Assembly: GCA_937896265.1 (NCBI GenBank)
Contig: CALBMD010000224.1
Location: 1 to 32,261, forward strand
Length of the DNA: 32,261 nt
Origin: an uncultured Pseudomonadota bacterium
Lineage (GTDB): Bacteria > Bdellovibrionota_B > Oligoflexia > Oligoflexales > Bog-1112
Direction of reading: 5' to 3'
Shown here: positions 1,987 to 30,358 of the stretch, piece by piece
Layout: every line of letters begins with the position of its first letter
Numbering within the stretch: the stretch's first letter is position 1
The notes under the pieces: generated by a model
Seen by the model: the letters and a program-made list of their open reading frames with translations, nothing else
Told to the model about the DNA's origin: nothing
Database searches by the model: none
Made by a program: the position numbers and the translations under genes

Positions 1987-2208
1987 TTGCCAGGCCAAGC
2001 ACTTGCCAACAAAGTCCTTGATGAGGCGAGAAAGCGAAGCATTGTTGTAAACAAGCTCTTGATAGCGGCTAGCATCCAGCAAACGCTGTTCTATGATTGG
2101 GTGCGAGGGTACGGTGCACCCAACGAAATTAACATCGTCAGGCTTAACGCTTGCCTAGCCTTTCTCGCGGAGGAGCCTGCCCATGCGCTTGCAAACGACA
2201 AGGATTAG
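1987..2208 (+). CDS. small hypothetical protein, possibly HTH DNA-binding
   Basis: TTG start 4 nt after AGGAA (1979-1983). The 73-aa product has helix-rich, regulator-like sequence. It is the first of a chain of overlapping + strand ORFs leading into the SLT gene. Confidence 0.35.
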   Translation: MPGQALANKVLDEARKRSIVVNKLLIAASIQQTLFYDWVRGYGAPNEINIVRLNACLAFLAEEPAHALANDKD

Positions 2209-3029: not shown

Positions 3030-3335
3030 ATGGGAACTAATTATTATATAAGGCAATATTGTCAGCACTGCGGGGAGACATGGGTGACCAAGGAGCGCCA
3101 TGTTGGAAAGCAGTCTGCTGGCTGGAAATTTAATTTTAACTCCACGGAGATTAAGTCTTACGAAGACTGGGTGAAGTTCCTCCGCGAACATGAAAAATAT
3201 TTTACTAACGAGTACGGTGAGAAGATAAATGTAGATGACTTCTTGAAAGGAATAGAGGTCAATAAGAACGGGCATCATGAACTAGGAGAAGAGGTGCAGA
3301 ATGGTTGCCGGTTTCATGACGGTGATTTTTCATAG
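3030..3335 (+). CDS. hypothetical phage protein with N-terminal CxxC
   Basis: ATG follows AAGAGGAAAA. The 101-aa product has protein-like composition (MGTNYYIRQYCQHCG...HVGKQSAGWKF). Confidence 0.6.
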   Translation: MGTNYYIRQYCQHCGETWVTKERHVGKQSAGWKFNFNSTEIKSYEDWVKFLREHEKYFTNEYGEKINVDDFLKGIEVNKNGHHELGEEVQNGCRFHDGDFS

Positions 3336-3408: not shown

Positions 3409-3681
3409 TTACTTTGCCACCTGCTTCTTTGAAAGGTTGTGTTGATCAATCAGAGTCATTACAGCCATCTTGATTACCGCTTGTCTGCCTGTTCCTAGCT
3501 CAGCAACAAATTCGTCGAGCCGATTAAGCATAGGAATGGGGAAGTCAACGTTGACCCTTTGAGATTCAATAAGCGGGGCTTTTCGGACCGGCTTGCTAAA
3601 GTATTGAGATACTTCCTCGCCACGGTCTGCCATGTTAGCTATTGTTTCGGCGTCGATGCTTTTTTTAGATGTTGTCTTCAT
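3409..3681 (-). CDS. brnA: BrnA-type antitoxin (RHH/CopG-like C-terminus)
   Basis: It overlaps the 3' end of the upstream DUF497 toxin gene by 17 nt. The C-terminal VNVDFPIPMLNRLDEFVAELGTGRQAVIKMAV is a ribbon-helix-helix pattern. Confidence 0.8.
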   Translation of the reverse strand: MKTTSKKSIDAETIANMADRGEEVSQYFSKPVRKAPLIESQRVNVDFPIPMLNRLDEFVAELGTGRQAVIKMAVMTLIDQHNLSKKQVAK

Positions 3682-3943
3682 ATTGTTTCCTTTCTCCAGG
3701 TGTTGATCTCCATAATGTCACAAAATGATAATATTCCCCGGTGTCATCTTCTCTTGGTTCATACACCAAAGAAATGAGTTTGTTACCAACGTAACCAATT
3801 ACCAAAAACTGATCCGGATCATCATTCTTCTGAAACTCCACATAATAATGTGAAAAGATAACCTGAGCTTCTTCAAAAGAGCACTTTCTATGCTTGTTCG
3901 CTTTTAGTTCTTTGCTCTTCTTTGGGTCCCAGGTAAAGCGCAC
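3665..3943 (-). CDS. brnT: BrnT-type (DUF497) ribonuclease toxin
   Basis: GTG start follows AGAGGGAA. The N-terminal FTWDPKKSKELKANKHRKCSFEEAQVIF matches the BrnT signature F-WD..K...N..KH.vsFeEA. It ends with a WRSTPGERKQY-like motif. Confidence 0.85.
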   Translation of the reverse strand: MRFTWDPKKSKELKANKHRKCSFEEAQVIFSHYYVEFQKNDDPDQFLVIGYVGNKLISLVYEPREDDTGEYYHFVTLWRSTPGERKQYEDNI

Positions 3944-3980: not shown

Positions 3981-4138
3981 TTTTTGCTTCGGTTAATTGC
4001 AAAAGAAAGTTGAGTGGAAATGTATAATCTATTGTTATCTAATATATTTTTTGATTTTATCCCTACTTCGCTTACATCCCCGCCATAAATGGCGAGGTTT
4101 TGCGCGAAGGGGATAAAGGTAGCCTAAAAACCCTTCCG

Positions 4139-4174
4139 ATTTAGAATTAGCTTTCTGACCCCACACTATATAGA
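4139..4174 (+). promoter_or_regulatory. conserved 36-bp promoter-like element, copy A
   Basis: ATTTAGAATTA-N12-CACACTATATAGA lies 23 bp upstream of the methyltransferase ATG. The same architecture occurs at 5572 and 9078. Confidence 0.5.
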
Positions 4175-4196
4175 TCAGAGAGTTGGGAGGGAAGCT

Positions 4197-4961
4197 ATGA
4201 ACTACAAAGTTAAATTTGGCGATATCTGGAAGCTGGGAAATCATCGACTGCTATGTGGTGATAGCACCGAACCAGCAATGATGGAACGCTTCCTGATCGG
4301 TCAGAATCCCGCCCTATGCGTGACTGATCCGCCTTATGGAGTTAACTACAAAGCCAGAGTAAGCAAACCGGCACTGTATGACCTGAAAGTCAAAAATGAC
4401 CATGTGGTGAGCTGGGGCGATGCGTTTAGGCTGTCTAAAGCTCCTGTGCTCTATGCTTGGTTTGGCTTTAAGGGCTTCGATATCGTTAGCCGTGCTATCA
4501 ATGATGCGGGCTATGACGTCAGGCAAATGCTCATTTGGGTCAAAAATCACTTTTCTCTACAGCGCTTCTTCTACCATCTTCAGCACGAACAATGCCTTTT
4601 GGCAGTCAGGCACGACGTCAAACAGGCCACTACCTGGACCGGAGACCGCAAGCAAAGATCTGTGTGGTTTGTTAATGGAGTGCGCCCAGGTCAGCGTATC
4701 CACCCGGCAGAGAAGCCAACAGGGGTCTATACCATCCCGATCATTAACCACACAAGAGAAGGCGATATCGTTGTCGACCTCTTTGCTGGTTCTGGCGTCT
4801 TATTTGAGGCCTGCGAGGCATTGCAGAGAGTCGGCCTAGGTATAGAGCTTTGTCCTGATGTTTGTTTTCGAATTATTGGGAGAATGGAACGTCTAGGGCT
4901 TGAGGTCTCAAAAGAGATTAACATTCTTGACGAATTAGAAACGGTTTTAGCCTGTTCATAG
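4197..4961 (+). CDS. DNA methyltransferase (N6/N4 type, DPPY ... FAGSG order), no partner restriction enzyme seen
   Basis: RBS GGGAGGGAAG. Motifs are GNHRLLCGDS, VTDPPYGV (motif IV) and the C-terminal VVDLFAGSGV (motif I), as in the N6_N4_Mtase family common in phages. Confidence 0.9.
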   Translation: MNYKVKFGDIWKLGNHRLLCGDSTEPAMMERFLIGQNPALCVTDPPYGVNYKARVSKPALYDLKVKNDHVVSWGDAFRLSKAPVLYAWFGFKGFDIVSRAINDAGYDVRQMLIWVKNHFSLQRFFYHLQHEQCLLAVRHDVKQATTWTGDRKQRSVWFVNGVRPGQRIHPAEKPTGVYTIPIINHTREGDIVVDLFAGSGVLFEACEALQRVGLGIELCPDVCFRIIGRMERLGLEVSKEINILDELETVLACS

Positions 4962-4974
4962 GAGAAAGTCAGCT

Positions 4975-5553
4975 ATGGGAATCGAATTCGACCTACGTGA
5001 CGTGCAAAAGTTCATTGAGTCCATCGACAAAGAAAACCAAAAGGCTATGCGATCTGCTGCTAATCGCAGCATTAACGCTATGCACAAAGAAGCGTGGAAG
5101 ATTGCGAAGGAGCGCTACAGCAAGCTGCCAAAGACCGAAGATCGAGATAAGAACGAGGCGTTTAACAGCCGTGTGACCAAGAGCGTTGATAGATCTGACC
5201 CAACGAGCTACAAGACGAAGTTAAAAGCAACTAAGGAGCCTTACAACGCGATCCATTCGGTTGTTGGCTCACGTTATCCAAGAGATCAGAAAGGCATTCC
5301 GGTTAAGCGAAGAGCACCAATCTATGTGAGGATAGCAGGAGAGAAGACGAAAGTTGGGAAAGCACAGTTTATCGGTAAGCCGAAAGCTACCGCTAGCAAA
5401 GACGTGACTCTGTTGCTTGCAAGAACTGAGGAAGGGCAGAAGAAAGAAACCTACAGCTCGCTCTATGATGTACTTTCCTTTCCAGAGAATGAAAAAAGAA
5501 TTGAAGCGGTCTTTAATAAGGTTGTGGATGAAGTTTACGGAAAAATGAAATAG
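4975..5553 (+). CDS. phage protein, possibly lambda gpZ-like tail completion protein
   Basis: The 192-aa basic protein has an N-terminal AMRSAANRSINAMHKEA segment and a basic central region that recall lambda gpZ / HK97 gp10-like proteins. The similarity was judged by eye only. Confidence 0.45.
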   Translation: MGIEFDLRDVQKFIESIDKENQKAMRSAANRSINAMHKEAWKIAKERYSKLPKTEDRDKNEAFNSRVTKSVDRSDPTSYKTKLKATKEPYNAIHSVVGSRYPRDQKGIPVKRRAPIYVRIAGEKTKVGKAQFIGKPKATASKDVTLLLARTEEGQKKETYSSLYDVLSFPENEKRIEAVFNKVVDEVYGKMK

Positions 5554-5571
5554 GCGTCATTACTGGGATTT

Positions 5572-5607
5572 ATTTAGAATTATACTTTTATTTCTACACT
5601 ATATAAA
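5572..5607 (+). promoter_or_regulatory. conserved 36-bp promoter-like element, copy B
   Basis: ATTTAGAATTA-N12-TACACTATATAAA lies at the start of the 310-bp gap preceding terS. Confidence 0.5.
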
Positions 5608-5623
5608 TTGGATTTAGTTGAGG

Positions 5624-5697
5624 AAACTCAATGAAAGCAAGATAAAATAATTATGGAATTTTTGAAATTGAAATCATTAAAACTCAATGAAATCAAG
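5624..5697 (+). repeat. two 18-bp direct repeats (candidate terminase-binding sites)
   Basis: AAACTCAATGAAAGCAAG (5624-5641) and AAACTCAATGAAATCAAG (5680-5697) match at 17 of 18 positions with a 56-bp period. Confidence 0.6.
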
Positions 5698-5794
5698 GGA
5701 AATACAGCGATGATCTCATAAAACCATTGTTTTTACTTGAAATTTACGCATAAAACTCTGCGGGTCCTTCCTGCCACGGTAGAATATCGGGTGC

Positions 5795-5806
5795 TCGGCG
5801 CGCCGA
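5795..5806. other. GC-rich perfect palindrome, candidate cosN core
   Basis: TCGGCGCGCCGA sits in a local GC-rich island within AT-rich DNA, 65 bp upstream of terS. Confidence 0.3.
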
Positions 5807-5870
5807 CTCTGCGAATATTTGTGGGGCTCTTAGCTCCACCAGTAGTCTATAAAAAAGAAAGGGTGTGAAT

Positions 5871-6353
5871 ATGTTGCAAACATTGAGTGAAACACAAAAG
5901 GCCTCTCTAGCACAACTGGAAAAACTGACTCAAATATCATTCAAGACTCTAGTGAAAAGATTAGCAGATGTCGAGCCAATTGAAGTTACTGCTCGTGAAA
6001 AATATTATCCACTCGGTGAAGCTCTTCGTGTCGTCTACAAACCTTCGCTTTTGGATCTCAACAAAGAACGCGCCCGTCTCGCCAAGTACCAAGGCGACAA
6101 GGTTAAGCTCGAAGTGCAAGAGATGAAAGGGATGCTCATCGATTCAGAAAAATGGCTCGCAGACTATTCGCAAAAAATAACTGGTTTCAAGGATAAAATG
6201 CTTGCTCTGCCGCTGAAACTTGCCGGTGAGGTTAGCATCTGTTCCGATGTCGAAGAAAACAGGATGCGCCTTACCTCCGCTGTCTATGAGGCACTAAACG
6301 ATCTAGCTTTTGCTCAAAAGGGTAATTATGAGGCACAAAAAGATAACCGCTAA
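5871..6353 (+). CDS. terminase small subunit (Nu1-like)
   Basis: ATG lies 7 nt after AGAAAGGG. It has an N-terminal HTH-like segment and a LDLNKERARLAKYQGDKVKLEVQEMKG coiled segment typical of small terminases. It sits immediately upstream of, and overlapping, terL. Confidence 0.75.
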   Translation: MLQTLSETQKASLAQLEKLTQISFKTLVKRLADVEPIEVTAREKYYPLGEALRVVYKPSLLDLNKERARLAKYQGDKVKLEVQEMKGMLIDSEKWLADYSQKITGFKDKMLALPLKLAGEVSICSDVEENRMRLTSAVYEALNDLAFAQKGNYEAQKDNR

Positions 6354-8136
6354 GCAAACGGTAGACGAGCTTTTTGCTATGTTCTTAGCTCCGCCACCAA
6401 GGCTATCGGTCAGTTCTTTTGCAGAAAAGGAACGTTACGCCTCTGTTGAAACATCGGCCTCATCTGGGCGATGGAAGAACATGCCATATCAGATAGCCAT
6501 GCAGGATAGCTACAAAGAGCCGAAGATTAAAACGGCTGTTTTCATGACAGCGACGCAAATTGGTAAAACCGAGATCATAAAGAACATAATAGCCTATTCC
6601 ATGGTCTATGATACAGGCAGCACGACTTTTATGTTGCCATCTGAGGCAGTCGCTAAGGATTACTCGAAAGCCCAACTTGGTCCTCTTATCCGCGACACTA
6701 AAATCCTGAGGGACAAAATCCCGTCGTCCCGCAAGGATGGCAATAATATTCTAAACAAGTCCTGGGTTGGTGGATACTTAAGGCTGGTCGGATCGCAAAC
6801 CGCGGATAAGCTTTCCTCGTTCCCGTCGCCAAGAATTTTCATCGATGAGTTAGACCGATGCACCCGATTAGTGCGTAATTCCGCTGGTATTGTTGAAGGA
6901 TCTCCTATCGATCTCTTTTTAGAGCGTTCTAAAAACTGGTCTAATCGTTTTGCTCTTTTCACCTCGACGCCAACCGTGGAAGGCGTATCACCCATAGAAA
7001 ATTGGTGGCTAAAATCGGATCAGCGCCTCCCTTTGGTGCCTTGTATCCATTGCGGATTTTACCAATTTCTAGAGTGGGAGCAGTTCACCTGGAAGGGGAA
7101 AGGTGACCCTAACACCACGCCAGACCGGGAATCATTTTGCTTTGAATGCAAAAGTTGTCACGAAACCTTTGACGACAAGAGCCGTAACAAATGGTTGCCG
7201 CTGCTGCGATGGGAGAAGCAAAGGCCTGAGGTTCAAGACATCGCGGGATTTCACATCAACGCTTTCTATTCGCCCTGGTCCTCGTGGATCGAGCTGTTCC
7301 AAAAACATCTCGACGCAGGGTCTAACCATGTCAAGCAAATGGTCTTTTGGAACACGACCCTAGGCAAACCATTTGCCATGAATTCTATCAAAACGCCAGA
7401 CTGGCAGAAGCTCTATGACCGCAAGCATAGCTACCAACGCTATACGATACCTGCCAAAGTGCGTATCCTCCTTGCTGCTGTTGATGTTCAGTTTGACCGC
7501 CTAGAGGTCTCTGTTATTGGCTTCTACAAGGCCCAAAGCTTTGTCATCACTCACGAGGTGATTCTAGGCAACACCTCAACTACTGATTCAGAGTGTTGGG
7601 GAGAGCTGGACGCGCTTTTGGGCCGTGATTGGGAACGTGAAGATGGTATGAAAATGGAAATTCACCGTGCTGCTATTGACGCCCATTACCAAACCAGCAC
7701 AGTTGCTCAATATGCTCGGGCTCGCAAAAAGATTGTCCCAGTTACTGGTATAGACAACTGGAAAACGGAGCTTTTGCCATCTCGGCCAATGAATTTGAAG
7801 CTAAATGGCAAGTCTCAGACCTCCGGCAAGCGCCGCTGGCCCATTGGTGTGTCGCTATTTAAGCTCGATCTCTATAACCGTTTGAAGCTAGAGCCAAACC
7901 AGGACGGCACTTTTCCGGCGGAATATATCCATTTCCCCGAAGGTCTGGGTGAAGAGTACTACAAGCAGCTCACCGGTGAGGTTTGTAAGCTAGAGCAAGA
8001 TATGCGTGGCAAGCCTAAAATGGTCTGGGAAAAGCAGCATGAAGCTGTTGAAGCTCTAGACTGCTTTGTCTACTGTTTGGCGCTAGTCAAGATCTGTGGC
8101 CTTCATCTGTGGAGCGAAGAGCGCTGGGCTGCCTAG
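6328..8136 (+). CDS. terminase large subunit, lambda GpA family
   Basis: FAEKERYAS...SSGRWKNMPYQIAMQDS...TATQIGKTE (Walker A-like) ...IFIDELDR (Walker B) matches the GpA pattern. The ORF is open from 6310, and ATG 6328 was chosen as the start. Confidence 0.92.
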   Translation: MRHKKITAKQTVDELFAMFLAPPPRLSVSSFAEKERYASVETSASSGRWKNMPYQIAMQDSYKEPKIKTAVFMTATQIGKTEIIKNIIAYSMVYDTGSTTFMLPSEAVAKDYSKAQLGPLIRDTKILRDKIPSSRKDGNNILNKSWVGGYLRLVGSQTADKLSSFPSPRIFIDELDRCTRLVRNSAGIVEGSPIDLFLERSKNWSNRFALFTSTPTVEGVSPIENWWLKSDQRLPLVPCIHCGFYQFLEWEQFTWKGKGDPNTTPDRESFCFECKSCHETFDDKSRNKWLPLLRWEKQRPEVQDIAGFHINAFYSPWSSWIELFQKHLDAGSNHVKQMVFWNTTLGKPFAMNSIKTPDWQKLYDRKHSYQRYTIPAKVRILLAAVDVQFDRLEVSVIGFYKAQSFVITHEVILGNTSTTDSECWGELDALLGRDWEREDGMKMEIHRAAIDAHYQTSTVAQYARARKKIVPVTGIDNWKTELLPSRPMNLKLNGKSQTSGKRRWPIGVSLFKLDLYNRLKLEPNQDGTFPAEYIHFPEGLGEEYYKQLTGEVCKLEQDMRGKPKMVWEKQHEAVEALDCFVYCLALVKICGLHLWSEERWAA

Positions 8137-8293
8137 GCGGCGACAATTGGGATTTTACCCAATCTATTTCATTTGAATCTTCTGGGGGAGCTATGTTTAC
8201 GCCTTCATATTCAGGATTTGAAAGCTTATCTCGAAACTTTTTCAGCGTTTTTTCATCAGGAAAATCTGGTTCTTTTTTTTCTTCTAATTTCAT
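8087..8293 (-). CDS. possible small acidic protein downstream of higA
   Basis: The 68-aa ORF starts 36 nt after the higA stop, and its 3' end overlaps the terL 3' end antisense by 50 nt. No family recognised. Confidence 0.2.
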   Translation of the reverse strand: MKLEEKKEPDFPDEKTLKKFRDKLSNPEYEGVNIAPPEDSNEIDWVKSQLSPPRQPSALRSTDEGHRS

Positions 8294-8328
8294 TTCTCTA
8301 CCTTTGAGCACTGGAGCAGCGAAACGGG

Positions 8329-8664
8329 TTAGCTGGCTCGAATAACTTTGATATCACGATAGAGAGTCAAGCATTGTTCTTTTGATTTGTCCATGGCTTC
8401 TAATAGCCTTGAGGCAGCTCCCGATGGCTGTGACAAACCCTGCTCCCAAGACTGGATTGTTTTTGAACTTACGCCAAGTAATTCAGCAAACAAAGGTTGA
8501 CTTAGCCCGATTGCTTTCCGTATCCGCGCTACATCCTCTGGTGAATAATCTATTGTTGGTTTTATTTCCCATTTTGTAATTTTTACATTTGTTTTTTTTC
8601 CTTTGGAAAAATCTTTGACTTCTTCCAAACTCTGCATAAGCAAATCGAAATTTTTCTTATCCAT
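8329..8664 (-). CDS. higA: HigA-2-like HTH (XRE) antitoxin
   Basis: The C-terminal IRKAIGLSQPLFAELLGVSSKTIQSWEQGLSQPSGAASRLLEAM matches the HigA-2/MqsA-like HTH pattern. It overlaps the upstream toxin gene by 8 nt. Confidence 0.85.
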   Translation of the reverse strand: MDKKNFDLLMQSLEEVKDFSKGKKTNVKITKWEIKPTIDYSPEDVARIRKAIGLSQPLFAELLGVSSKTIQSWEQGLSQPSGAASRLLEAMDKSKEQCLTLYRDIKVIRAS

Positions 8665-8995
8665 TTAAATCCTCCTCAATGCTTTTGAGCATTTTTGCTA
8701 CTCTACTCTTTTGTTCTGGTAACAAATCTTCAGATTCATTCTTCACTATGAGAAAAATGAAGAAAATTTTGTCCGCTTTTGCGAAATCCTTATAAAAGAC
8801 TCTGGCTCCGCCTCGTTTACCTCGGCCTGAAGCAGGAACTCTGATTTTTCTTAGCCCGTGGGTCCCTTTAATTACAACGCCAGCATCGGGGGATGCTAGA
8901 AGAGTTCTCTGTAAAGTTCTTAGGTCTTCTTCGCTTAGCTTGGCTTCAGTCCATAACTGCCTGAAAATACTGGTTTCGATGAACTCTCGTATCAT
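8657..8995 (-). CDS. higB: HigB-2-like (RelE superfamily) toxin
   Basis: GTHGLRKIRVPASGRGKRGGARVFY...FFIFLIVKNESEDL closely follows the Vibrio HigB-2-type signature GTGGLRKIRV...GKGKRGG.R.IYY. The operon is toxin-first. Confidence 0.85.
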   Translation of the reverse strand: MIREFIETSIFRQLWTEAKLSEEDLRTLQRTLLASPDAGVVIKGTHGLRKIRVPASGRGKRGGARVFYKDFAKADKIFFIFLIVKNESEDLLPEQKSRVAKMLKSIEEDLNG

Positions 8996-9027
8996 AGACG
9001 ATCTCCTAAAGTCCTAAATAATAGTAG

Positions 9028-9042
9028 TCCTAAAATTTAGGA
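9028..9042. promoter_or_regulatory. dyad operator candidate upstream of higBA
   Basis: TCCTAAA-A-TTTAGGA is a perfect inverted repeat. Extra TCCTAAA half-sites occur at 9004-9010 and 9012-9018. Confidence 0.45.
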
Positions 9043-9077
9043 TAGTCAAGAGATATCCGTCGAATCGTTGCTCAATT

Positions 9078-9113
9078 ATTTAGAATTATACTTTCACACT
9101 CACACTATATAGA
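9078..9113 (+). promoter_or_regulatory. conserved 36-bp promoter-like element, copy C
   Basis: ATTTAGAATTA-N12-CACACTATATAGA lies 40 bp upstream of the gpW-like ATG. Confidence 0.5.
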
Positions 9114-9153
9114 AACGAATTAGAAAGTGATTTTCACCCGGAGCTTGCTGGAA

Positions 9154-9354
9154 ATGCCTTCGATCGAAAAACAATTAAAGACGCTAAAAGCAGCATATGC
9201 CTCCGGGGTAAATCGCGTTCGTTTTGGTGACCAAGAGATCACCTATAAGACAGAAGAAGAAATGCGACGCATCATAGAAAGGCTGGAAAGACAGCTAAAT
9301 GGCGCGCATAAGATCAAGTTTGTTACGCCACGATTTTCAAAAGGTTTAGATTGA
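9154..9354 (+). CDS. head-tail joining protein, lambda gpW-like
   Basis: The 66-aa product reads LKTLKAAYASGVNRVRFGDQEITYKTEEEMRRIIERLERQL, which fits the gpW pattern. It sits between terL and the portal as in lambda. The ORF is open from GTG 9127. Confidence 0.7.
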   Translation: MPSIEKQLKTLKAAYASGVNRVRFGDQEITYKTEEEMRRIIERLERQLNGAHKIKFVTPRFSKGLD

Positions 9355-10751
9355 GCTTCATTGACTCTGCCATTGAAAGGATTTCACCTGCTTTCGCTTT
9401 ACGGCGCGAGATAGCTAGACGCAAGCTATTTGCTGTAAGAGCTTTCGAGGGGGCATCTCTTTCGCCAAGGATGGATAGATGGGGTCTTGCCTCCTATAAG
9501 GATACCTATAAAGACCGCAAATATCTTAGGCAGCGGGCTAGATATCTCGTTGATAACAACCCTTATGCCGCAAGAGCCTTAGCAACTTTGTCCTCTTATA
9601 CGATCGGCAAGGGAATTATCCCGCATATTGATGATAGCGCAAAAGCTATATCAATATTTGAGCGTAGCCTAAAGCATTGGGCTGATAGCGAAGCTTGCGA
9701 CGTCGAAGGCTACACTAATCTCTATGGCCTTCAAGCACTCATTGTGAAAAATCTCATTGTCGACGGCGAGGTTTTCGTCCAGCGGGTGTTCGACAAATCG
9801 GCAATCATTCCTATTAAGCTGCGTCTTATTGAGGCCAGCAAGCTTGACGAGACTAAAAGCACCAATGATGGGAAAATCCAGCACGGTATTGAATACGCTG
9901 GCAATGGCCAGATAGCAGCCTACTGGTTTGCCAGCGACGAAGCGCAAGAAAGTAAAAGAGTCGATGCCGATGATATAGCTCATGTCTTTCGCAAGGATCG
10001 CGCTGGCCAGAGCCGTGGTGTGAGCTGGTTTGCTCCGATTCTTACCCGCCTCAAAGACTTCGACGATTTCGAAGATGCAGAGCTGTTACGGCAAAAACTA
10101 TCGGCTTCGATTGTCGGGGTTTTCCGCGACCTCGAAGCGCAAGGCGATGATTTTGGTGAGAAGTCCTCAATACCTAAAGAAATTAAGCCTGGTTCGATTT
10201 TCGAGGCTCCTGCTGGCCAAACTATCGAATTTTTTGCCCCACCTGCACCAGCGGGAAGCAGTGCCTATATTACTCACATCAAAATGACGTTGGCGATTGG
10301 CCTTGGCATCCCTTATATGCTGCTGGCTGGCGACTATAGCAATTCCAATTTCTCTTCTTCGCGCCTATCGATGCTTAACTTCTATAAATACATAGATCAG
10401 ATCCAGTCATTAGTGTTGATCCCTACATTTTGTAACCCGGTGGCGCGCTGGTTTGAAGAGGCCTGCTCTTTAAAAATGCAGGCACCACCTCTAAAAATGG
10501 CTTGGACGCCGCCCAAGAAGGACCTCACAGACCCGATTAAAGAAATCGAAGCGATGCGACGCACCGTCGAGGCTGGCTTTTGCGCTCATCAAGACGTGAT
10601 CCGAGAATTGGGTGAAGACCCAGAAGACGTCTATCAGCGCATCGATACGTCTAACAAATTGATCGATCAAAAAGGATTTTCGTTCTCAACAGATTATCGC
10701 AACAAGAAGGAATTCCAAGGTGAAAATAAGATCACTCAGTCGCGAAGCTAG
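9351..10751 (+). CDS. portal protein, lambda (gpB) family
   Basis: RARYLVDNNPYAARALATLSSYTIGKGIIP and GVSWFAPIL are characteristic of Phage_portal_2. The TTG start overlaps the gpW stop. Confidence 0.9.
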   Translation: MSFIDSAIERISPAFALRREIARRKLFAVRAFEGASLSPRMDRWGLASYKDTYKDRKYLRQRARYLVDNNPYAARALATLSSYTIGKGIIPHIDDSAKAISIFERSLKHWADSEACDVEGYTNLYGLQALIVKNLIVDGEVFVQRVFDKSAIIPIKLRLIEASKLDETKSTNDGKIQHGIEYAGNGQIAAYWFASDEAQESKRVDADDIAHVFRKDRAGQSRGVSWFAPILTRLKDFDDFEDAELLRQKLSASIVGVFRDLEAQGDDFGEKSSIPKEIKPGSIFEAPAGQTIEFFAPPAPAGSSAYITHIKMTLAIGLGIPYMLLAGDYSNSNFSSSRLSMLNFYKYIDQIQSLVLIPTFCNPVARWFEEACSLKMQAPPLKMAWTPPKKDLTDPIKEIEAMRRTVEAGFCAHQDVIRELGEDPEDVYQRIDTSNKLIDQKGFSFSTDYRNKKEFQGENKITQSRS

Positions 10752-12531
10752 TTTTTTGCCACAAAGCATTGACCGCGAGCGCCGCACAGTGGAAGTGGTT
10801 TGGTCGACTGGGGCAAGGGTCTTGCGGTCTGATTTCATGTCAGGTCCCCATTATGAGGAGCTGTCGCTTGACCCTAAGCATGTTGATCTAAGGCGCTTTA
10901 ACTCAGGGGCGCCGGTGGTTGACAATCATAAAACCTGGAGCCTGAAAGACCAGATTGGTGTCGTAGAAAGGGCCTGGATTGATGGGAAAGAGGCGAAAGC
11001 TTTGATTCGCTTCTCCAAGAGAGCCGATGTCCAACCTATCTTTGATGATATTGCTGATGGTGTCTTTCGCAACATTTCAATTGGCTATCGTGTCCTCAAG
11101 GCTGATGAAAGCACTCGCCAAGGGGACAAGATCAAGACCATTACAGCCACCAAGTGGGAGCCATATGAGCTTTCTCTTGTTCTCATTAATGCCGACGCCA
11201 AAGCTCAAGTAAGGAGTAACAAAGTGGAACCAGAATTAGAAGAAAACACCAGCATTGGAATCCCAGAAAACAACCAAGATGTGAAGGAGAAGGAAAAGCT
11301 CAGATGTCGAAGCATCATTGATTTGACGCGCAAATTTTCCATGGAGCAATCCTTCGCTGATACCCTCATTGACAAGGATAAAAGTCTCGATGAAGCTAGG
11401 GAAATAATTCTCGAAGCGCTATCGAATCGTAGCATTGCCCAAGAGATTCGTACTACTTCAATCGAACTGGGACAAGATGAGAGAGACTTCAAACGCTCTG
11501 GCATTGCCAATGCCCTGTTAAATCGAGCTAATCCGGTAAACAAACTCGATGATAATGGTCGCCGATACCGATCCTATTCCTTGCTGGATGTAGCAAAGGA
11601 ATGTGTGGGTGCAAGTTCTAACACTCTCACAAAAGATAGACTAGTTAGTCGCGCCTTTCATAGCACCTCCGACTTTCCCGAGATTCTTGGTAACGCTGCT
11701 CAGCAAAGCCTTATGGCTTCTTATGAGCGCCTGATGCAAAAGCAAAACTTTTGGCCACTAGCTAGAATTAAAAGTGCTCCAGACTTTAGGCCGATGCGAC
11801 GTGTGCGCATCGGTGAGATGCCTTCATTAGCTGAACTCCCTGAAGGAGCAGAATACTCCCATGGCACTCTAGGTGAAAGCGCTGAGGAATACCGGATTTC
11901 TACTTGGGGTAGATCCATCGGTATTACCCGCCAAATGGTTATTAATGACGATCTAGGAGCACTTGATACCTTGAGCAATTGGGGTGGCGCTATTTCGCGG
12001 CTTGAGAGCTTCCTTTTTTGGTCCATCTTTAACGATAACCCAAAAATGGCCGATGGCATTCCTCTATTCGACAAAAAACACGGTAATAAAGCAGAGAATC
12101 CAGTTGAACTCAGCGTTGAGGCACTAGCTGCCGCTAGAATCGCCATGGGCCGTCAGCAAGGGATAGATAAGGGAGAAGGCGATTTTCTCGATCTAAAGCC
12201 AGAATTTTTGATCGTTCCTTTAGAGCTTCAGATGAAAGCTGAGCAACTTTTGAGTCGAGAGGTGCTGCCACTTGATCCGAGCAAGGTAAACCCCTTCAAA
12301 GACGCTTTTACGCCAATTGTAACGAGCAGGATCAAAGATCCTAAGGCTTGGTTCCTCTCAACTTCTAATGAGCAAGGAGTCGACCTTATCGAAATGGCTT
12401 ATTTGGATGGACAACGTGCGCCGTTTATAGAGTGGGAAACCGACTTTAAAACTGACTCGCTGGTGGTTAAAGCGCGCATGGATATCGCAGCTAAAGCCAT
12501 TGATTACCGTGGATTTTACAAAGGAGCTTAA
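10720..12531 (+). CDS. prohead protease / scaffold-like linker / major capsid protein fusion
   Basis: The N-terminal ~170 aa look like an HK97-type prohead serine protease (VVDNHK..., NISIGYRV). A Glu/Lys-rich linker follows. The C-terminal ~330 aa look like a capsid protein ending in DYRGFYKGA. It is a single 603-aa ORF with no internal stop. Confidence 0.8.
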   Translation: MKIRSLSREASFLPQSIDRERRTVEVVWSTGARVLRSDFMSGPHYEELSLDPKHVDLRRFNSGAPVVDNHKTWSLKDQIGVVERAWIDGKEAKALIRFSKRADVQPIFDDIADGVFRNISIGYRVLKADESTRQGDKIKTITATKWEPYELSLVLINADAKAQVRSNKVEPELEENTSIGIPENNQDVKEKEKLRCRSIIDLTRKFSMEQSFADTLIDKDKSLDEAREIILEALSNRSIAQEIRTTSIELGQDERDFKRSGIANALLNRANPVNKLDDNGRRYRSYSLLDVAKECVGASSNTLTKDRLVSRAFHSTSDFPEILGNAAQQSLMASYERLMQKQNFWPLARIKSAPDFRPMRRVRIGEMPSLAELPEGAEYSHGTLGESAEEYRISTWGRSIGITRQMVINDDLGALDTLSNWGGAISRLESFLFWSIFNDNPKMADGIPLFDKKHGNKAENPVELSVEALAAARIAMGRQQGIDKGEGDFLDLKPEFLIVPLELQMKAEQLLSREVLPLDPSKVNPFKDAFTPIVTSRIKDPKAWFLSTSNEQGVDLIEMAYLDGQRAPFIEWETDFKTDSLVVKARMDIAAKAIDYRGFYKGA

Positions 12532-12532
12532 C

Positions 12533-12844
12533 TTGAAAAACTTTTTGCAAAATGGCGATCTCATCACGTGCGATGCACCCAGTGACGTGAAATCAGGCGA
12601 TATTGTAGTGATTGGACAAATGGCCTGTGTGGCGGTTACTGATGCCCAAGATCAAAGCGTCACCCTATCGACAACCGGTGTTTTTAGCCTGCCCAAGGTC
12701 AAAAAAGAAGTCTTCACGCCTGGGCAAAGGGTCTATACCAAAGATGGTCTAGTAACTGGCGAGCCAAAGGATGCTGTTGATCTGGGATTCGCTTTAAAAG
12801 CCTGTAGCCAAAAAAGCGAAGGCTGGGAGGTACTACTACGATGA
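12533..12844 (+). CDS. DUF2190-like head protein (decoration/cement candidate)
   Basis: TTG lies 7 nt after AAGGAG (12521-12526). The sequence GDIVVIGQMACVAVTD...GVFSLPK fits DUF2190 proteins, which commonly follow capsid genes. The ORF is open from 12500. Confidence 0.6.
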   Translation: MKNFLQNGDLITCDAPSDVKSGDIVVIGQMACVAVTDAQDQSVTLSTTGVFSLPKVKKEVFTPGQRVYTKDGLVTGEPKDAVDLGFALKACSQKSEGWEVLLR

Positions 12845-13161
12845 TTCCCATATTAGCCATCAGTGCTGCTTTTGCTTCTATCAAGATGTTGCTAGGTGTG
12901 GTTGCCACCTTCTACCTTGTCGACAAGCAGCTTAAAACCCGTGTCCTCTTTGAGACTAATCCGACGACGGTGGATGCTCAAAGTGGCCTGCAGGTAATTT
13001 CAAACCAGTGTCGTTTGACTACAAAGGCCTGTAAGGACACCAAAGCAATTTGTGTAGGTACGAAGGTTACTATCAAGAAGAAGAGCTATTCGATTAAGAG
13101 CGTGTTTTTGGACGAAAGTAGAAGGGTGGTGGTCTGTGACCTCGCAAAGACGAAAGATTAG
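12841..13161 (+). CDS. hypothetical head-tail connector region protein
   Basis: The ATGA overlap with the preceding gene suggests translational coupling. The function call rests on position only. Confidence 0.4.
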   Translation: MIPILAISAAFASIKMLLGVVATFYLVDKQLKTRVLFETNPTTVDAQSGLQVISNQCRLTTKACKDTKAICVGTKVTIKKKSYSIKSVFLDESRRVVVCDLAKTKD

Positions 13162-13597
13162 ACAATATGCGCAGCAAGCTTGCGCATGGATTTTCAGTGA
13201 TATTCGTTTTGGAGCAAGGGGCAAAAGCAACGTCTCTGCACCATGCCTGATCATCTCAACGCCAAAAGAAACACGTATTTTGAAGGGTCAAAGTCCCAAG
13301 ATTTATGAGGTTGAGACCACGCTTAGCTGCGAGATTTTGGCCTGGGAGAAAGAGAATATCCTAGACGAGCTAGATGCTTTAGGTGACCTAGTGGAAGGTG
13401 TCATATTAAAAGATCGCTTTTTTTCTGGTATTTCTTGCGACGTTAATTTGATTTCTACCTATAGCGAAGCGAATGCAACAGATGAAAACAATTTCGGTTC
13501 GCTACTCTTAATGTTTGAAGTCAAAAGCCATATGGAGATTGCCGAAGAGCTGCCAAATTACTACCAAATGGGAGGGCTCAGCATTGGTAAGCTTTAA
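13136..13597 (+). CDS. hypothetical protein (tail completion/terminator candidate by position)
   Basis: 153-aa ORF with a GTG start, located between the head genes and the sheath gene. No motif recognised. Confidence 0.4.
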   Translation: MTSQRRKIRQYAQQACAWIFSDIRFGARGKSNVSAPCLIISTPKETRILKGQSPKIYEVETTLSCEILAWEKENILDELDALGDLVEGVILKDRFFSGISCDVNLISTYSEANATDENNFGSLLLMFEVKSHMEIAEELPNYYQMGGLSIGKL

Positions 13598-14810
13598 TCA
13601 AAAAATAGAAAATGCTTTGTCACCATTTAACTATATTGAATTCTCGAATGCAGAGGCATTTGAAGGACTTTCGACGCAGCCGCAAAGGCTGCTTTTAATT
13701 GATCTTGCTGAGCCGTCGCAGCCTATTGCACAAATTAGCGAGGCAGCAAATCAAACCAGCACAATGGCACAGTCTGAGACTGTAAAAAAGAAAGCGAAGC
13801 AAGTAGAGATAGCAACAGCAGGCGACTTAGTAAGCCAACCGACCGAAGATGAGCAGCCGAAAAAAAAGCCTCTAATACCTTTAGAGAAAAACAAAGTTAT
13901 AGCAGGTATGGAGGCGGCCAAATACGAGCTAACCAAGCGCCTAGAGGAGGCCTTGGCAGCAGTAAAGGAAGTGAGCCAAGGCATAGAGATCTATCTCTTG
14001 CTGATGGATGGCAAAGAGAAAATAGCTGATTTTCTCCCTGAAACCCAATACACCCAAATTGCTTTGTTGGTCGACGATGAGGATTTAATCAAAGATCTAC
14101 GAACCATCTTAGAGAAGAGATGGGGCCAAGAGGTCCAACTAGATGGGCATCTATTCCTAGCTTCATCTGCTGATCATAGCGCATTAAAGAAGCAGTCTAC
14201 CAAGATGTTGGATTTAAATGTTTCATTAATCCCTTGTCCAGTAGCAGACAAAAGTCACATTTGGGCTGCTACTTTTGCTGCAACGAATACCGTTTATGCC
14301 GTTACCCCGTCACGGCCCTATCAAACGTTAAAGGTTAAAGGCATCTCATACGTTGGCCAAGGACCCAACTTAGAGCAACGCAATGATCTTCTAAAATCAG
14401 GTGTAAGTACCTGGAAAGTCAGTGGCGATTCGATCCATATCGACCGCCTTGTTACTACCTATAGCAAAGACGCAAGCTACCGAGACTTAAACACCAAGCA
14501 GACTCTAAGCTACATCCGCTACGACTTTAACCGCTCTATTGCAGCGATGTTCCCGCGGCACATGTTAGCCAAAGACAACTATGCCTACCAAGGGCCAGTT
14601 ATTACGCCGACAGTAGCAAAAGCCTTTGCTATCTCTCGCTATCGGAAGTGGCAAGCAAATAATTTGGTTCAAGATCCGGACGGCTCTTTTGCCAAAAAAG
14701 TAAGAGTTGAAGTGGACGAAAAGCAAGGCGACAAGCTCAATTTCTACTTGCCCGTGCACGTCATGGGACAGTGGGTCATTACGCAAACACAAATAGCTTT
14801 TAGGATCTGA
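13584..14810 (+). CDS. contractile tail sheath protein (Mu gpL-like)
   Basis: The conserved C-terminal part reads SRPYQTLKVKGI...NDLLKSGVSTW...IDRLVTTY...LSYIRYDF. Its position is immediately before the tube gene. TTG 13584 lies 8 nt after GGGAGGG, and the alternative ATG 13515 would overlap the upstream gene by 83 nt. Confidence 0.85.
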   Translation: MVSFNQKIENALSPFNYIEFSNAEAFEGLSTQPQRLLLIDLAEPSQPIAQISEAANQTSTMAQSETVKKKAKQVEIATAGDLVSQPTEDEQPKKKPLIPLEKNKVIAGMEAAKYELTKRLEEALAAVKEVSQGIEIYLLLMDGKEKIADFLPETQYTQIALLVDDEDLIKDLRTILEKRWGQEVQLDGHLFLASSADHSALKKQSTKMLDLNVSLIPCPVADKSHIWAATFAATNTVYAVTPSRPYQTLKVKGISYVGQGPNLEQRNDLLKSGVSTWKVSGDSIHIDRLVTTYSKDASYRDLNTKQTLSYIRYDFNRSIAAMFPRHMLAKDNYAYQGPVITPTVAKAFAISRYRKWQANNLVQDPDGSFAKKVRVEVDEKQGDKLNFYLPVHVMGQWVITQTQIAFRI

Positions 14811-14811
14811 T

Positions 14812-15177
14812 ATGGGACGCATTGGCGGCATCGTCTATCTACGCAAAGACGGAAAACTAATCACTCTAGGGGATGGCGACCTGAGCTTCAATCTCGGAGG
14901 TATTAAGAGAGAAGCCGTGCTTTCTAGCTCTGGGGTTGCAGGATTCTCTGGCAAATTTCAGGTGCCTTTTATCGAAGGCGAGATGCTGCATACCAAAGAT
15001 TTGGACATCAAAGAGATGCTGGACACCGAAGATGCAACCATTTCGGCAGAACTTTACAACGGCAAAACATTTATTTTACATGAGGCTTTTTTCGTCGGTG
15101 AAGGGGATGTCTCTTCCGACGGTAAATTTAAATTTCGCTTTGAAAGTGCTAAAGAAGGAGAACTAATCGATGCTTAA
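14812..15177 (+). CDS. tail tube protein (Mu gpM-like)
   Basis: The 121-aa product reads GGIVYLRKDGKLITLGDGDLSFNLGGIKREAV...AELYNGKTFILHEAF, which fits the Mu-type tube family pattern. Confidence 0.85.
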   Translation: MGRIGGIVYLRKDGKLITLGDGDLSFNLGGIKREAVLSSSGVAGFSGKFQVPFIEGEMLHTKDLDIKEMLDTEDATISAELYNGKTFILHEAFFVGEGDVSSDGKFKFRFESAKEGELIDA

Positions 15178-15433
15178 ACCTTACATGGAAGACAACATCT
15201 TGCACCTGTCAAAGACCTACAAATTTGGCAGCTCTGAAATAAGCCAACTAACTTTTGGTGAATTAACGGCAGCAGAAATGGGAGAAATCACGATTAACGG
15301 TGCCACAAAATTCAAAGAATTTTTTCCCATCATCTCAAAATTAACCGGAGTGACACCCAGCTTCGTGACCAAACTCAGTCGGCAAGACATCATGCTGGCC
15401 GTGGAGCATGTTGGTTTTTTGTTAGCCGAGTGA
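15170..15433 (+). CDS. tail assembly chaperone (G/E-like, short form)
   Basis: The 87-aa acidic protein lies between the tube and tape measure genes and carries a slippery heptamer near its 3' end. Confidence 0.8.
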   Translation: MLKPYMEDNILHLSKTYKFGSSEISQLTFGELTAAEMGEITINGATKFKEFFPIISKLTGVTPSFVTKLSRQDIMLAVEHVGFLLAE

Positions 15434-15579
15434 AGGTTGATGTTAAGGAAGCGCATGAAATTCTTCTCTACTTCACTCATTTTCAGCCTTCAGAGATGAT
15501 GCGAATGACGGAAAAAGAAATGCTGTATTGGGTGGAGCGTGTTGGAAAAGCATACAAGAACTATAGGCCAAAACAATGA
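15170..15579 (+). CDS. tail assembly chaperone, -1 frameshift-extended form (GT/E+E'-like)
   Basis: The -1 frame is open from 15421 to TGA at 15577-15579 (52 further codons: VSRVKVDVKEAHE...YRPKQ) and has no start or RBS of its own. Its TGA overlaps the tape measure ATG at 15576. Confidence 0.65.
15415..15421 (+). promoter_or_regulatory. -1 programmed frameshift slippery heptamer T_TTT_TTG
   Basis: In the zero frame GGT TTT TTG, the heptamer T TTT TTG fits X_XXY_YYZ. Confidence 0.65.
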
Positions 15580-17513
15580 GTAAAGGAAAAAACTATGCGA
15601 AGAAGATTGCTTTTGAGGCTATCTTTAAGGACAAAACGGGTGGTTTGGCGAAGCTACAAAGCTTTTTTCAAAACATACACAAAGCTACGGAAAAAACTAG
15701 CCAAAGCTTAGATAAGGTACAAAAGCGCCTTAGTTCGCTTAATTTTAATGGTCTAAGAACCTTCCAGAAACGCAGCGAACAAGTGGCAAAGAAGGTCGCC
15801 AGTATGTCCGACTCCTTTATGCTGCCTTCCCTTGCTGGCACAGCGACGTCAATTTTCGCTATGGCTTCACCGGCGCATTTAGAACGCGAAATATACAAAC
15901 TTGCTGAGCTTGGTCGATCTTTTGATAAGTTCGGCAACAAAGTTCGGCTAACCAGTACAGACCTAGCGGAGCTTGTTACCGAGATCCGGCGTATTGGGGC
16001 AGAAACGCAATTTTCTAACCCAGAAGCAGCAATGGCCATGAACCGCGCCGCCTCGCAAGGTTGGAACGATCGTGACACCTTAATGGCAGCCACAGCACCT
16101 ATTACCTATTTTACTGGCGCATCCAGGTTAAAAAGTCCAGGGTTTCAGCTTGAAGGGTCTGCAGAGATGTTGACCAGTCTAATCAATGCTTTCCACCTGC
16201 CTAAAAGCTCTATTGGTGACGTTGCTGACAAGCTGGCCTATGCCATTTCGAATTCAGGGCAAACCAGTGAAGAGCTAAATGACGCATTGATTAAAGTTGG
16301 ATCGCTGGCCAAGGATATGAACCTACCTTTTGAGGACGCTATTGCTATTACGATGCAACTTGCTGATATTGGCGTTAAAGACGCTATTGCCGGGACAGCG
16401 CTATCCGGCTTTATGTCGAGAATGTCGAGTTTACCACCAGAAGGGCTTGAAGTAGCGCATGCTAGGTTTTCACCTAGCGAACGCCGGGATGTGATAGATG
16501 AGACTGGCAAATTTAAAGCAGGCGGCCTGCAGCGACTATTTCAGCTGATGGGCGAAAAGCACCTAACTGTCGGCGAAAAGATGAAGATCATGGGCGTCGA
16601 GTCTGGGCGCTCTTTGATCGGGTTAACCGGCGTAATGAAAGGCCTTAAAGATGTGGTGGAGGCGCTCAAGGAGAAATCACACGGTCTAGCTAAAGTCCTA
16701 AACGATGTGCAAGTCCAAGGGTTATTAGGCCAACTGGATCTTTTGGGTTCGGCTATCGATGAAACAGCCACTAAGATTGGTTTTGACGGTGGCGTTTTGG
16801 GCTCTGTCACGAGCGTTATTACCAGAATAAAAGAGGCTGTTGAAGGACTAAACCAGCATCTAACTCCTGAAACGGCAGCTAATCTTGGAGCCTTTCTTAA
16901 GGATCTTGGGATTTTTTGCGCAACGATGTTAGGGCTAAAGCTCGCCTATGTTTCTGTAGTTTTCATCGGCTTATCCTCTAAAATTGGCTTGTTGGTAGCT
17001 GCTGGCCTGGTTTTCAGCAAGTTTGTTTATGACAACTTCGAAAACCTAAAAACAATTTTCCAACCGATAATTGATTTCATATCTGGCTTGTACAATTTTG
17101 TTTTTAGAGGGGAGATCCCAGGAATATCGGAATGGCTAGCCCAATCGATCTTTGACCATCAGCCAACGCTCGGCCCCGATGAAGAATTTGGCGCAAAAAG
17201 CGTGCGCTATTGGAACAAATGGTTTGATTCGCTAGGATCATTAAACAATTGGAACATTCCATTTTTTGGAATTGGCGAGCAAGCTTCCGAATCTGCATTA
17301 GAAAAAGATTTCTTTACGGAAATGCAGTGCAAAGAACCTAAAGACATCTATTCTTTTTTTAAGTCTCTTAACCAAGAATCAAAAAAAGAATCTAAGGTCA
17401 AAGTCGAACTAAGCTTTAAAGACCTACCACGTTCGACCAAATTTAAGGTTGAAAATCCTGACCGCATACGACTTGAAACCTACACAGGATGGGCCATGGA
17501 GGGCATTGGATGA
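15576..17513 (+). CDS. tail tape measure protein
   Basis: The 645-aa helical protein has a conserved TMP core (ETQFS...AASQGW...) and a C-terminal hydrophobic segment. Its position follows the chaperone pair. Confidence 0.9.
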   Translation: MSKGKNYAKKIAFEAIFKDKTGGLAKLQSFFQNIHKATEKTSQSLDKVQKRLSSLNFNGLRTFQKRSEQVAKKVASMSDSFMLPSLAGTATSIFAMASPAHLEREIYKLAELGRSFDKFGNKVRLTSTDLAELVTEIRRIGAETQFSNPEAAMAMNRAASQGWNDRDTLMAATAPITYFTGASRLKSPGFQLEGSAEMLTSLINAFHLPKSSIGDVADKLAYAISNSGQTSEELNDALIKVGSLAKDMNLPFEDAIAITMQLADIGVKDAIAGTALSGFMSRMSSLPPEGLEVAHARFSPSERRDVIDETGKFKAGGLQRLFQLMGEKHLTVGEKMKIMGVESGRSLIGLTGVMKGLKDVVEALKEKSHGLAKVLNDVQVQGLLGQLDLLGSAIDETATKIGFDGGVLGSVTSVITRIKEAVEGLNQHLTPETAANLGAFLKDLGIFCATMLGLKLAYVSVVFIGLSSKIGLLVAAGLVFSKFVYDNFENLKTIFQPIIDFISGLYNFVFRGEIPGISEWLAQSIFDHQPTLGPDEEFGAKSVRYWNKWFDSLGSLNNWNIPFFGIGEQASESALEKDFFTEMQCKEPKDIYSFFKSLNQESKKESKVKVELSFKDLPRSTKFKVENPDRIRLETYTGWAMEGIG

Positions 17514-22615: not shown

Positions 22616-22655
22616 TGGCTATTTATGCCCAACGCGCCAAAAAGGTCAATTCATC
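22616..22655. repeat. left terminal inverted repeat
   Basis: TGGCTATTTATGCCCAACGCGCCAAAAAGGTCAATTCATC. It contains the last codons and the stop of tnpR. Confidence 0.9.
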
Positions 22656-27157: not shown

Positions 27158-27171
27158 AGGGAGAAGCTGAC

Positions 27172-30327: not shown

Positions 30328-30358
30328 TCTAAACTACTCAACTTGGGGGGGGATTTTG

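Follow-up and report, generated by a model that had tools for sequence, protein, structure and literature searches.

The window analysed here is a 32,261-nucleotide (nt) stretch of contig CALBMD010000224.1 (GenBank assembly GCA_937896265.1), derived from a wastewater metagenome, and it carries part of the genome of an uncultivated phage. Packaging and head genes of lambda type are combined with a Mu-type contractile tail, as judged from Pfam and PHROG matches. Three rightward gene units are present: a DNA methylase gene with the gene for a 192-aa protein, the cos/terS/terL packaging region, and a block running from a gpW-like gene through the tail. At the head of each unit lies one copy of a 36-bp element, ATTTAGAATTA-N12-YACACTATATARA. 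These copies, here called c1, c2 and c3, are the subject of this analysis, and the coordinates of the features discussed are collected in Table 1.

A pattern search of the window recovered the three copies with 0 mismatches, 3/3 on the + strand, exactly where the initial annotation had placed them. No fourth match appeared even with three mismatches allowed, the pattern was absent from 100 dinucleotide-preserving shuffles, and either half alone is no commoner elsewhere in the window than expected by chance. The 11 + 13 conserved positions recognised at the outset are borne out, with conservation extending somewhat wider: CTTT occupies element positions 14-17 in all three copies, c2 and c3 share both a preceding TT and a TATAC string, and a repeat finder extends the family to 48 nt. 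The spacing, described as identical, is so within the window, but in a c3 variant from the same metagenome the spacer is shortened by 2 nt.

The placement of the copies is equally regular. Non-coding DNA makes up about 10% of the window, and non-coding DNA within 300 nt upstream of a + strand gene makes up 6%; c1, c2 and c3 all fall inside this 6%, in sense orientation (rough P = 3e-5). c2 lies 19 nt 3' of the stop codon of the 192-aa gene; a cos-like block follows after about 190 nt and terS after 257 nt. c1 sits in a divergent intergenic region that it shares with a BrnT-type toxin-antitoxin (TA) cassette, and c3 in one that it shares with a divergent RelE-like/helix-turn-helix (HTH) cassette. 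The repeat, its placement and its orientation are confirmed by these results, as is the view that each copy stands in non-coding DNA just upstream of a + strand block (methyltransferase; cos/terS; gpW/portal). The antisense TA cassettes reported beside two of the copies are also real (3409-3943 and 8329-8995), and they have good sigma-70-type promoters, unlike the elements themselves.

Table 1. Elements, genes and junctions discussed in the text (window coordinates unless a relative is named).
Feature	Coordinates	Strand	Basis and remarks
c1	4139-4174	+	Exact match; 22 nt upstream of methylase ATG (4197)
c2	5570-5611	+	42-nt unit bounded by metagenome breakpoints; 36-bp version, exact match, at 5572-5607
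c3	9078-9113	+	Exact match; 40 nt upstream of gpW-like ATG (9154); heads 13-kb head/tail block
N6/N4 DNA methylase	4197-4961	+	Pfam N6_N4_Mtase, E = 6e-16; behind c1
192-aa protein	4975-5553	+	Behind c1; weak PHROG match to neck/tail-completion protein
terS	5865-6353	+	PHROG; behind c2
terL, gpA-type	6310-8136	+	Pfam GpA_ATPase and GpA_nuclease; behind c2
Terminator-like hairpin after terL	8146-8163		Terminator scan
Head/tail block	9154-22454	+	Pfam, PHROG, list of open reading frames; behind c3
BrnT-type toxin and partner	3665-3943 (toxin), 3409-3681 (partner)	-	Own sigma-70-like promoter, 4002 to 3973; divergent from c1
RelE-like toxin and HTH antitoxin	8657-8995 (toxin), 8329-8664 (antitoxin)	-	Own sigma-70-like promoter, 9049 to 9021; divergent from c3
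73-aa XRE/Cro-type HTH protein	1987-2208	+	AlphaFold model, Foldseek; speculative candidate regulator
terL|gpW junction, window	8137-9153		
terL|gpW junction, L005	11792-12495		
terL|gpW junction, L008	6496-7422		
terL|gpW junction, L089	3504-4596		
terL|gpW junction, L094	1905-2626		
terL|gpW junction, L092	3745-4397		

To place the element among related phages, we compared the window with uncultivated contigs found by protein search, whose TerL is 45-74% identical. No DNA relative was matched among 50,697 phage records; the TerL of the nearest isolates (Wolbachia phage WO, Roseobacter phages) is 34% identical, and the TerL relatives in IMG/VR and JGI metagenomes reach at most 35-44%. A search of related genomes for the motif had been proposed. 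The motif is absent from IMG/VR, and 596 Gbp of bacterial genomes yielded four exact matches, single and unrelated, about the number expected by chance. What the TerL-found relatives do have is, in each case, a repeated, co-oriented, intergenic element of their own at the same junctions: between terL and gpW, before the gene that precedes cos/terS and, in the contig L005, also before a replication block. Next to gpW, a copy was found in every locus read through to that gene, a tally that excludes L089 and L094, whose contigs end before it.

In L005 (TerL 74% identical) the element reads TTATTTAG(G/T)GTTTnTTTCGTCrTGGATrC... and spans about 45 nt. Of its three copies, d1-d3 (4075-4120, 8692-8736 and 12419-12465), one precedes a block with a DUF5906 primase/helicase-type gene, one the homologue of the 192-aa gene and one gpW, and 125 nt upstream of d1 there is a further, partial copy. 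L091 carries three copies of the 23-nt CATGGGACACTATCCTAGTTG, L092 three copies of the 32-nt ACTTTATGCCCAGCCTGGGCACAAGTCTCTGA, and L093 two copies of an element of about 70 nt; the more distant relatives L012/L017, L016 and L031 have elements of unrelated sequence at the same junctions. Between the end of the conserved part and the start codon there are 17 to 126 nt, a variation in keeping with promoters that have varied leaders rather than with a translation signal. As a class, the elements are multi-copy, co-oriented, intergenic, promoter-like sequences at operon heads, with relatives holding their own versions at the same junctions.

Two side observations concern these loci. The L092 element (at about 200, 3770 and 4295) contains a 15-bp palindrome, TGCCCAG-C/G-CTGGGCA, in which the arms are constant and only the central base changes from copy to copy. 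The palindrome could serve as a dimer-binding site or form a hairpin; the element of the window, by contrast, is asymmetric. The terL|gpW junction is also a hotspot for inserted cassettes, including RelE/HTH, BrnTA, HicB-type, Fic, a BrnTA pair in opposite orientation and an unknown 143-aa gene. The BrnT cassette of the window is homologous to the BrnTA pair of L094.

Comparison of the elements revealed two shared boxes. The window, L005, L094 and, less clearly, L008 have a TTATTTAG box upstream and a [T/C]ACAC(C)TAT box downstream, and L091 keeps only ACACTAT of the downstream box. The spacing between the boxes is 22 nt in the window, 32 nt in L005, 41 nt in L094 and 43 nt in L008, in steps close to helical turns. 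The sequence between them is lineage-specific, and in L005 it is nearly invariant among copies. Measured from ATTTAG, the start codon lies 58 nt away in c1, 57 nt in d1 and 60 nt in d2, and 76 nt away in c3 and 77 nt in d3. The L005 boxes vary in concert: two copies have TAGG...CCTA, the third TAGT...ACTA. In the window, each box is a weak inverted repeat of the other (ATTTATTTAG/CTATATAAAT, 9/10 in c2, 5568-5608). Apart from this end-to-end repeat, an inverted-repeat scan of all copies found only a CTATAT/ATATAG mini-palindrome, and it detected no dyad-symmetric site in the upstream half.

Further evidence on the limits of the element came from aligning contigs of two source DNA metagenome runs, X1 and X2, to the region. 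In X2, 5570-5611 forms a unitig of its own, 42 nt long and of higher depth, with two alternative flanks on each side. One X1 contig has 9075-9159 in common with the window, differs upstream and carries a 2-nt spacer deletion (window 9099-9100; N10 instead of N12), and another shares only 9080-9128. A third X1 contig, of 502 nt, shares only 4141-4229, with a different upstream flank and compensating -1/+1 spacer indels (4155, 4161). The alternative flanks were found neither in the window nor in any relative locus compared; these contigs, which share only the element, come from other genomes or from other parts of the window genome. Because they diverge at its edges, the element is a discrete, portable unit of about 42 nt and a mosaic joint. 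The variant c3 and c1 spacers further suggest that a fixed spacing of the boxes may not be essential.

We then examined how far the element resembles known promoters. Applying a canonical sigma-70 criterion (-35 TTGACA and -10 TATAAT, 17 +/- 1 bp apart, at least 9/12 matches), the promoter scan found no + strand promoter at the elements, so that the initial statement that no good pair could be fitted is roughly true. A weaker arrangement does fit: TTTAGA (4/6) lies 16 nt upstream of YACACT (3-4/6), giving 7-8/12 in the best + strand case, though at background level. TATATA is the other -10 candidate. In L005, where the boxes stand 10 nt further apart, the sigma-70 fit is gone. By eye, the window and L005 copies were also read as sigma-54, sigma-32, extracytoplasmic-function (ECF) sigma, T4 gp55 and SPO1 late promoters, and none of these fits both. 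An archaeal TATA-box reading was discarded on account of strong Shine-Dalgarno sites and bacterial-type genes, and a centromere (parS) or terminase-binding reading because relatives showing no partition genes keep the constant position just upstream of start codons.

It had also been proposed that ACTATATA is the -10 region and the upstream half an activator site, an assignment that is not secure. The downstream box of L005 lies 11-26 nt from strong Shine-Dalgarno/ATG pairs, and a -10 at TATAGT/TACTTA there would leave the ribosome site outside the mRNA. This proximity favours the YACACT core, 4-5 nt further upstream, as the more likely -10, if the downstream box holds a -10 at all.

No conserved RNA fold emerged: the leaders of c1-c3 and d1-d3 fold differently, with z-scores from -2.3 to +1.1 that are mostly non-significant. 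The two boxes would pair too weakly over the long range, and no such pairing was predicted; no Rfam family was matched in the window. We also scanned 46 open reading frames (ORFs) of the window, which is only part of the phage genome, one by one against Pfam. Among them there was no match to the Mor/C, Ogr, Q, N, sigma or RNA polymerase families, nor a NusG-like match.

Taken together, these observations are best explained if c1-c3 are phage-specific promoters that need a phage factor and start the three rightward units, a reading to which we give roughly even chances. In the mechanism that we infer from the sequence, from the promoter role and start site to the need for a factor and its identity, the conserved unit would be a core promoter covering roughly -37 to +5; the 42-nt unit bounded by homology breakpoints is about the size of a core promoter. 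TTTAGA of the upstream box would take the -35 position, followed by a 16-nt spacer, and the YACACT core of the downstream box would act as a poor -10, with transcription starting about 7 nt after it, at the conserved purines that close the element. Since both hexamers are weak and the conserved AATTAnnCTTT positions are not read by sigma-70, a phage-encoded helper protein is to be expected, which would read these positions for the host RNA polymerase. The operons would stay silent until the lytic programme runs; the good promoters of the TA cassettes beside the weak fit of the elements are what positive control of lytic operons would predict. The terminator-like hairpin after terL and the convergent TA cassette between terL and gpW call for a new start at c3. 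Each related phage would have swapped the specificity part for a sequence of its own, presumably with its own factor, and the element, being shared between genomes, would double as a recombination joint between modules.

Several points weigh against this reading. Since one L005 copy stands before replication-type genes, the class is not strictly late; of the initial proposal of an activator-dependent late promoter, the phage-specific, promoter-like character at operon heads and the weak sigma-70 fit stand, and "late" is doubtful. A sigma-70 fit of 7-8/12 occurs about once per 141 nt. The uniform distance from ATTTAG to the start codon suits the upstream box, not the downstream box, as the one that sets the start site. 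With the boxes 22, 32 and 41-43 nt apart in different relatives, and 2 nt closer in the natural c3 variant, the upstream box cannot be a -35 in all relatives. No activator or sigma factor was recognised among the ORFs scanned. The only conserved DNA-binding candidate is an XRE-type HTH protein, a class that usually binds symmetric sites, and the element is asymmetric. No RNA run containing the sequence was found; the only runs that contain it are the two DNA metagenomes.

This candidate, the 1987-2208 product, had been put forward early as a possible regulator. It is a small XRE-type HTH protein conserved in L005. Its AlphaFold model has four helices (predicted local distance difference test, pLDDT, 84) and resembles C.BclI, C.AhdI, HipB and the N-terminal domain of P22 C2 (Foldseek, probability 0.9-0.99). 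The protein has no Pfam, PHROG or PDB sequence match and only four relatives among 1.8 billion representative proteins. A 44% identical homologue lies at the same place in L005. In the window, its gene is followed by that of a basic protein of 86 aa (2183-2443), whose C-terminus reads KKKKPGRPYEL, and by an SLT-domain endolysin gene; the same order, with a small basic protein ending in KKKKxGRPYE(L/V), is found in L005. As the only non-structural protein common to the window and the sequenced part of L005, the 73-aa protein is a reasonable candidate, and from its position a role as regulator of the element is plausible, if speculative.

A broader proposal combines this candidate with the two boxes. 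The signal would be bipartite and modular, with TTATTTAG and YACAC-TAT common to the lineage and between them an insert, particular to each lineage and some one, two or three helical turns long, that chooses the phage factor. This factor could represent a new small-activator family and might be the XRE-like 73-aa protein acting with its KKKKxGRPYE partner; the unit would double as a recombination joint at which co-infecting relatives exchange modules and morons. In this full form we consider the proposal doubtful.

The remaining features of the window provide context for these readings. The block behind c3 runs, in the order listed, through the gpW-like adaptor, lambda-type portal, protease-capsid fusion, cement protein, sheath, tube, tape measure and Mu-type baseplate, has no internal gaps and contains no extra element copy; its tail genes also include DNA_circ_N and gp44/45/46/baseplate J. 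Directly 3' of the baseplate genes, at the expected tail-fibre position, lies a Tn3-family unit (22646-26487) with a resolvase gene on the - strand and a transposase split into 23401-26226 and 26275-26487, and the phage may for this reason be defective. Plasmid-type genes follow at 26876-32110: a ParE/HTH pair, ParA (27974-28747, - strand) with a ribbon-helix-helix (RHH) partner, a KfrA-like gene and a DnaA/IstB-like ATPase. The KfrA-like gene has a 128-nt tandem repeat at 29309-29580. Together the plasmid-type genes suggest that the window phage is probably a phage-plasmid.

Homologues of the 192-aa protein occur in L005, L089, L091, L092, L093, L007 and L008, before cos/terS in all relatives, and the protein is probably structural. 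It was considered as a RinA/ArpU/Alt-like activator and rejected, as it has no HTH or sigma match, gives only the weak neck/tail-completion PHROG match and has an N-terminus like those of HK97 gp10-type structural proteins. Between c2 and terS, a cos-like block (5762-5815) reads GGGTCCTTCC ... TTCGAATATT, and the same block stands before terS in L005 (~9433), L007 (~4505), L089 (~1086), L093 (~9379), L095 (~669) and L179 (~1105). The left end of the window holds the SLT-domain endolysin gene with two small genes before it. A control-region-like stretch at 1390-1620 contains a sigma-70-like promoter (1396-1425), a perfect 12-bp inverted repeat, TGACATACAAAC/GTTTGTATGTCA (1438-1471), a 14-bp palindrome (1472-1500) and several ATACAAA repeats; the equivalent place in L005 has ACTGTGAC iterons (7328-7685). 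A 128-aa ORF called at 1589-1975 looks doubtful. A 101-aa protein (3030-3335) has CxxC near its N-terminus and CxxH near its C-terminus and matches PHROG 12436 (function unknown; E = 4e-11).

Other explanations of the element have to be weighed against the phage-specific promoter. Negative control is unlikely, though the likeliest of these alternatives. A dispersed, asymmetric operator of a prophage or plasmid repressor, overlapping each lytic promoter, would recall the scattered asymmetric 17-bp C1 operators of the phage-plasmid P1 or the stoperators of mycobacteriophage L5. The ParA, KfrA-like and DnaA-like genes give the window the look of a phage-plasmid, the sites are asymmetric, in one orientation and at operon heads, and the L005 copy at the head of an early-type replication block is easier to reconcile with a general lytic-promoter operator than with an activator site used only late. 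However, a promoter freed of its repressor should be good, and no good -35/-10 pair lies in or beside the elements; no repressor gene was seen in the window, and for a single operator the three sites, at 36-42 bp, are long. We regard it as slightly less probable that the -10 lies in the upstream box (TAGAAT in the window; TAGGGT or TAGTGT in L005) and that the rest is a conserved initial transcribed region. The -10-like downstream box (TACACT/TATATA) could then be a sigma-dependent pause, an antiterminator loading site as at lambdoid Q-dependent late promoters, or another leader signal. TAGAAT matches the -10 consensus at 5/6 positions, start codons follow ATTTAG at nearly constant distances (57-60 and 76/77 nt) although the downstream box shifts by 10 nt between the window and L005, and a start near position 16 would put the d1 and d2 Shine-Dalgarno sequences well inside the mRNA. 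Read-through of the post-terL terminator and the antisense cassettes would also be useful. Against this stand the want of a conserved -35 or TG extension upstream of the box, the sequences TAGAGC in L094 and TAGCAA in L008, which lack the essential final T, and L091, which keeps only the downstream part; nor did the scanned ORFs match Q, N or NusG-like proteins, or the leaders share a hairpin.

Plain, weak, constitutive sigma-70 promoters (TTTAGA-16-YACACT), alike through duplication or recombination and served by no dedicated factor, would explain why the hexamers fall on conserved blocks, why the least conserved positions lie in the spacer and why the conserved unit spans about -37 to +5. 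Such promoters are nevertheless improbable: positions 8-17 (AATTAnnCTTT) are conserved though sigma-70 does not read them, the more widely spaced L005 boxes allow no sigma-70 fit, and constitutive terminase and head genes in a resident phage-plasmid would presumably be harmful. It is more improbable still that the element is mainly a recombination joint or tiny portable cassette, a short stretch at which co-infecting relatives exchange modules, with little or no regulatory role. The homology of co-occurring contigs does start or stop at the element (4141, 5570/5611, 9075, 9080/9128), the ends of c2 form the 9/10 inverted repeat, and different morons adjoin the element in relatives. Yet orientation and position just upstream of start codons are constant, unrelated sequences equally placed in distant relatives point to a function read in one direction, and shared regulatory sequences are expected to become joints anyway. 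Least credible of all, to the point of being nearly dismissible, is a leftward promoter for the antisense TA cassettes, with TTTATA/TCTATA-17-TATAAT on the minus strand. The promoter scan gives c2 a minus-strand TTTATA-17-TATAAT at 10/12, c3 also has a minus-strand fit, and immediately left of c1, as of c3, there is a minus-strand TA cassette. But no minus-strand gene lies to the left of c2, the -10 position of c1 has GCTAAT, each cassette has its own promoter that is nearer and of better quality, and the L091 and L092 elements have no minus-strand genes nearby.

If phage-specific promoters do lie at c1-c3, the element would offer a view of the regulatory grammar of deep-branching, uncultivated lambda-head/Mu-tail phages and phage-plasmids, a means to delimit the operons of this group and a handle for finding the regulator. 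It would also be a concrete case of regulatory sequences serving as mosaic joints beside toxin-antitoxin morons.

Among known systems, the Mu C-dependent late promoters were the analogy drawn in the initial annotation. They have a recognisable -10 and no typical -35, depend on a phage protein, and are bound by Mu C at a 16-bp imperfect dyad centred at -43.5 (PMC2582627). Like them, the element described here occurs in several phage-specific copies; those of Mu head lysis/packaging, head, tail and DNA-modification operons, and here one copy precedes a DNA-modification gene and the tail/baseplate genes are of Mu type. The analogy with Mu C itself fails: unlike Mu, the element has no dyad, no Mor/C-family protein was found among the ORFs scanned (nor Ogr or Q), the head and packaging genes are of lambda type, and the L005 element also heads replication genes.

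The Lpa-dependent late promoters of P1 have a -10, no -35 and a 9-bp inverted repeat near -22. The probable phage-plasmid character and the many operon-head signals are points of likeness with P1; in contrast, no copy has an inverted repeat between the boxes, the sequences are not similar, and no homologue of Lpa or C1 was detected. In P2, 186 and P4, four late operon promoters with no good -35 share an upstream element, the TGT-N12-ACA dyad near -55 in P2, and are served by the zinc-finger activators Ogr, B and Delta. This dyad is absent from c1-c3 and no Ogr/Delta Pfam match was found among the ORFs; the 101-aa CxxC protein of the window, set beside these activators, has no homologue in L005.

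The C-box promoters of restriction-modification systems come closer in one respect, since the predicted fold of the 73-aa protein resembles C.BclI, C.AhdI and C.Kpn2I, and c1 precedes a methylase gene. C proteins, which are small and of XRE type, activate promoters whose -35 regions are poor. However, C-boxes are paired palindromes beside the C gene, whereas the sites described here are asymmetric and far from the HTH gene, and 2/3 of them are unrelated to modification genes.

Promoters of single-subunit RNA polymerases (SP6/K11/T7) are, like the element, asymmetric, highly conserved, multi-copy and co-oriented with genes, and we take the ACACTATA string and the ATTTAG start to resemble the SP6 promoter. 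Those promoters are contiguous and about 23 bp long, whereas the two strings here stand 17 or more nt apart, split by a 12-nt variable spacer (22-31 nt in relatives), and no phage RNA polymerase gene was found in the window or in the 21.8 kb of L005 read. The lambdoid nut and Q sites, with a boxB hairpin or a Q element and pause and an N or Q gene, differ in that the window has no shared hairpin or Rfam match and its scanned ORFs no Q or N match. Set beside these systems, the element is most probably a familiar class of device with a new sequence; it would add a further instance of that class and leaves the general understanding of phage late control unchanged.

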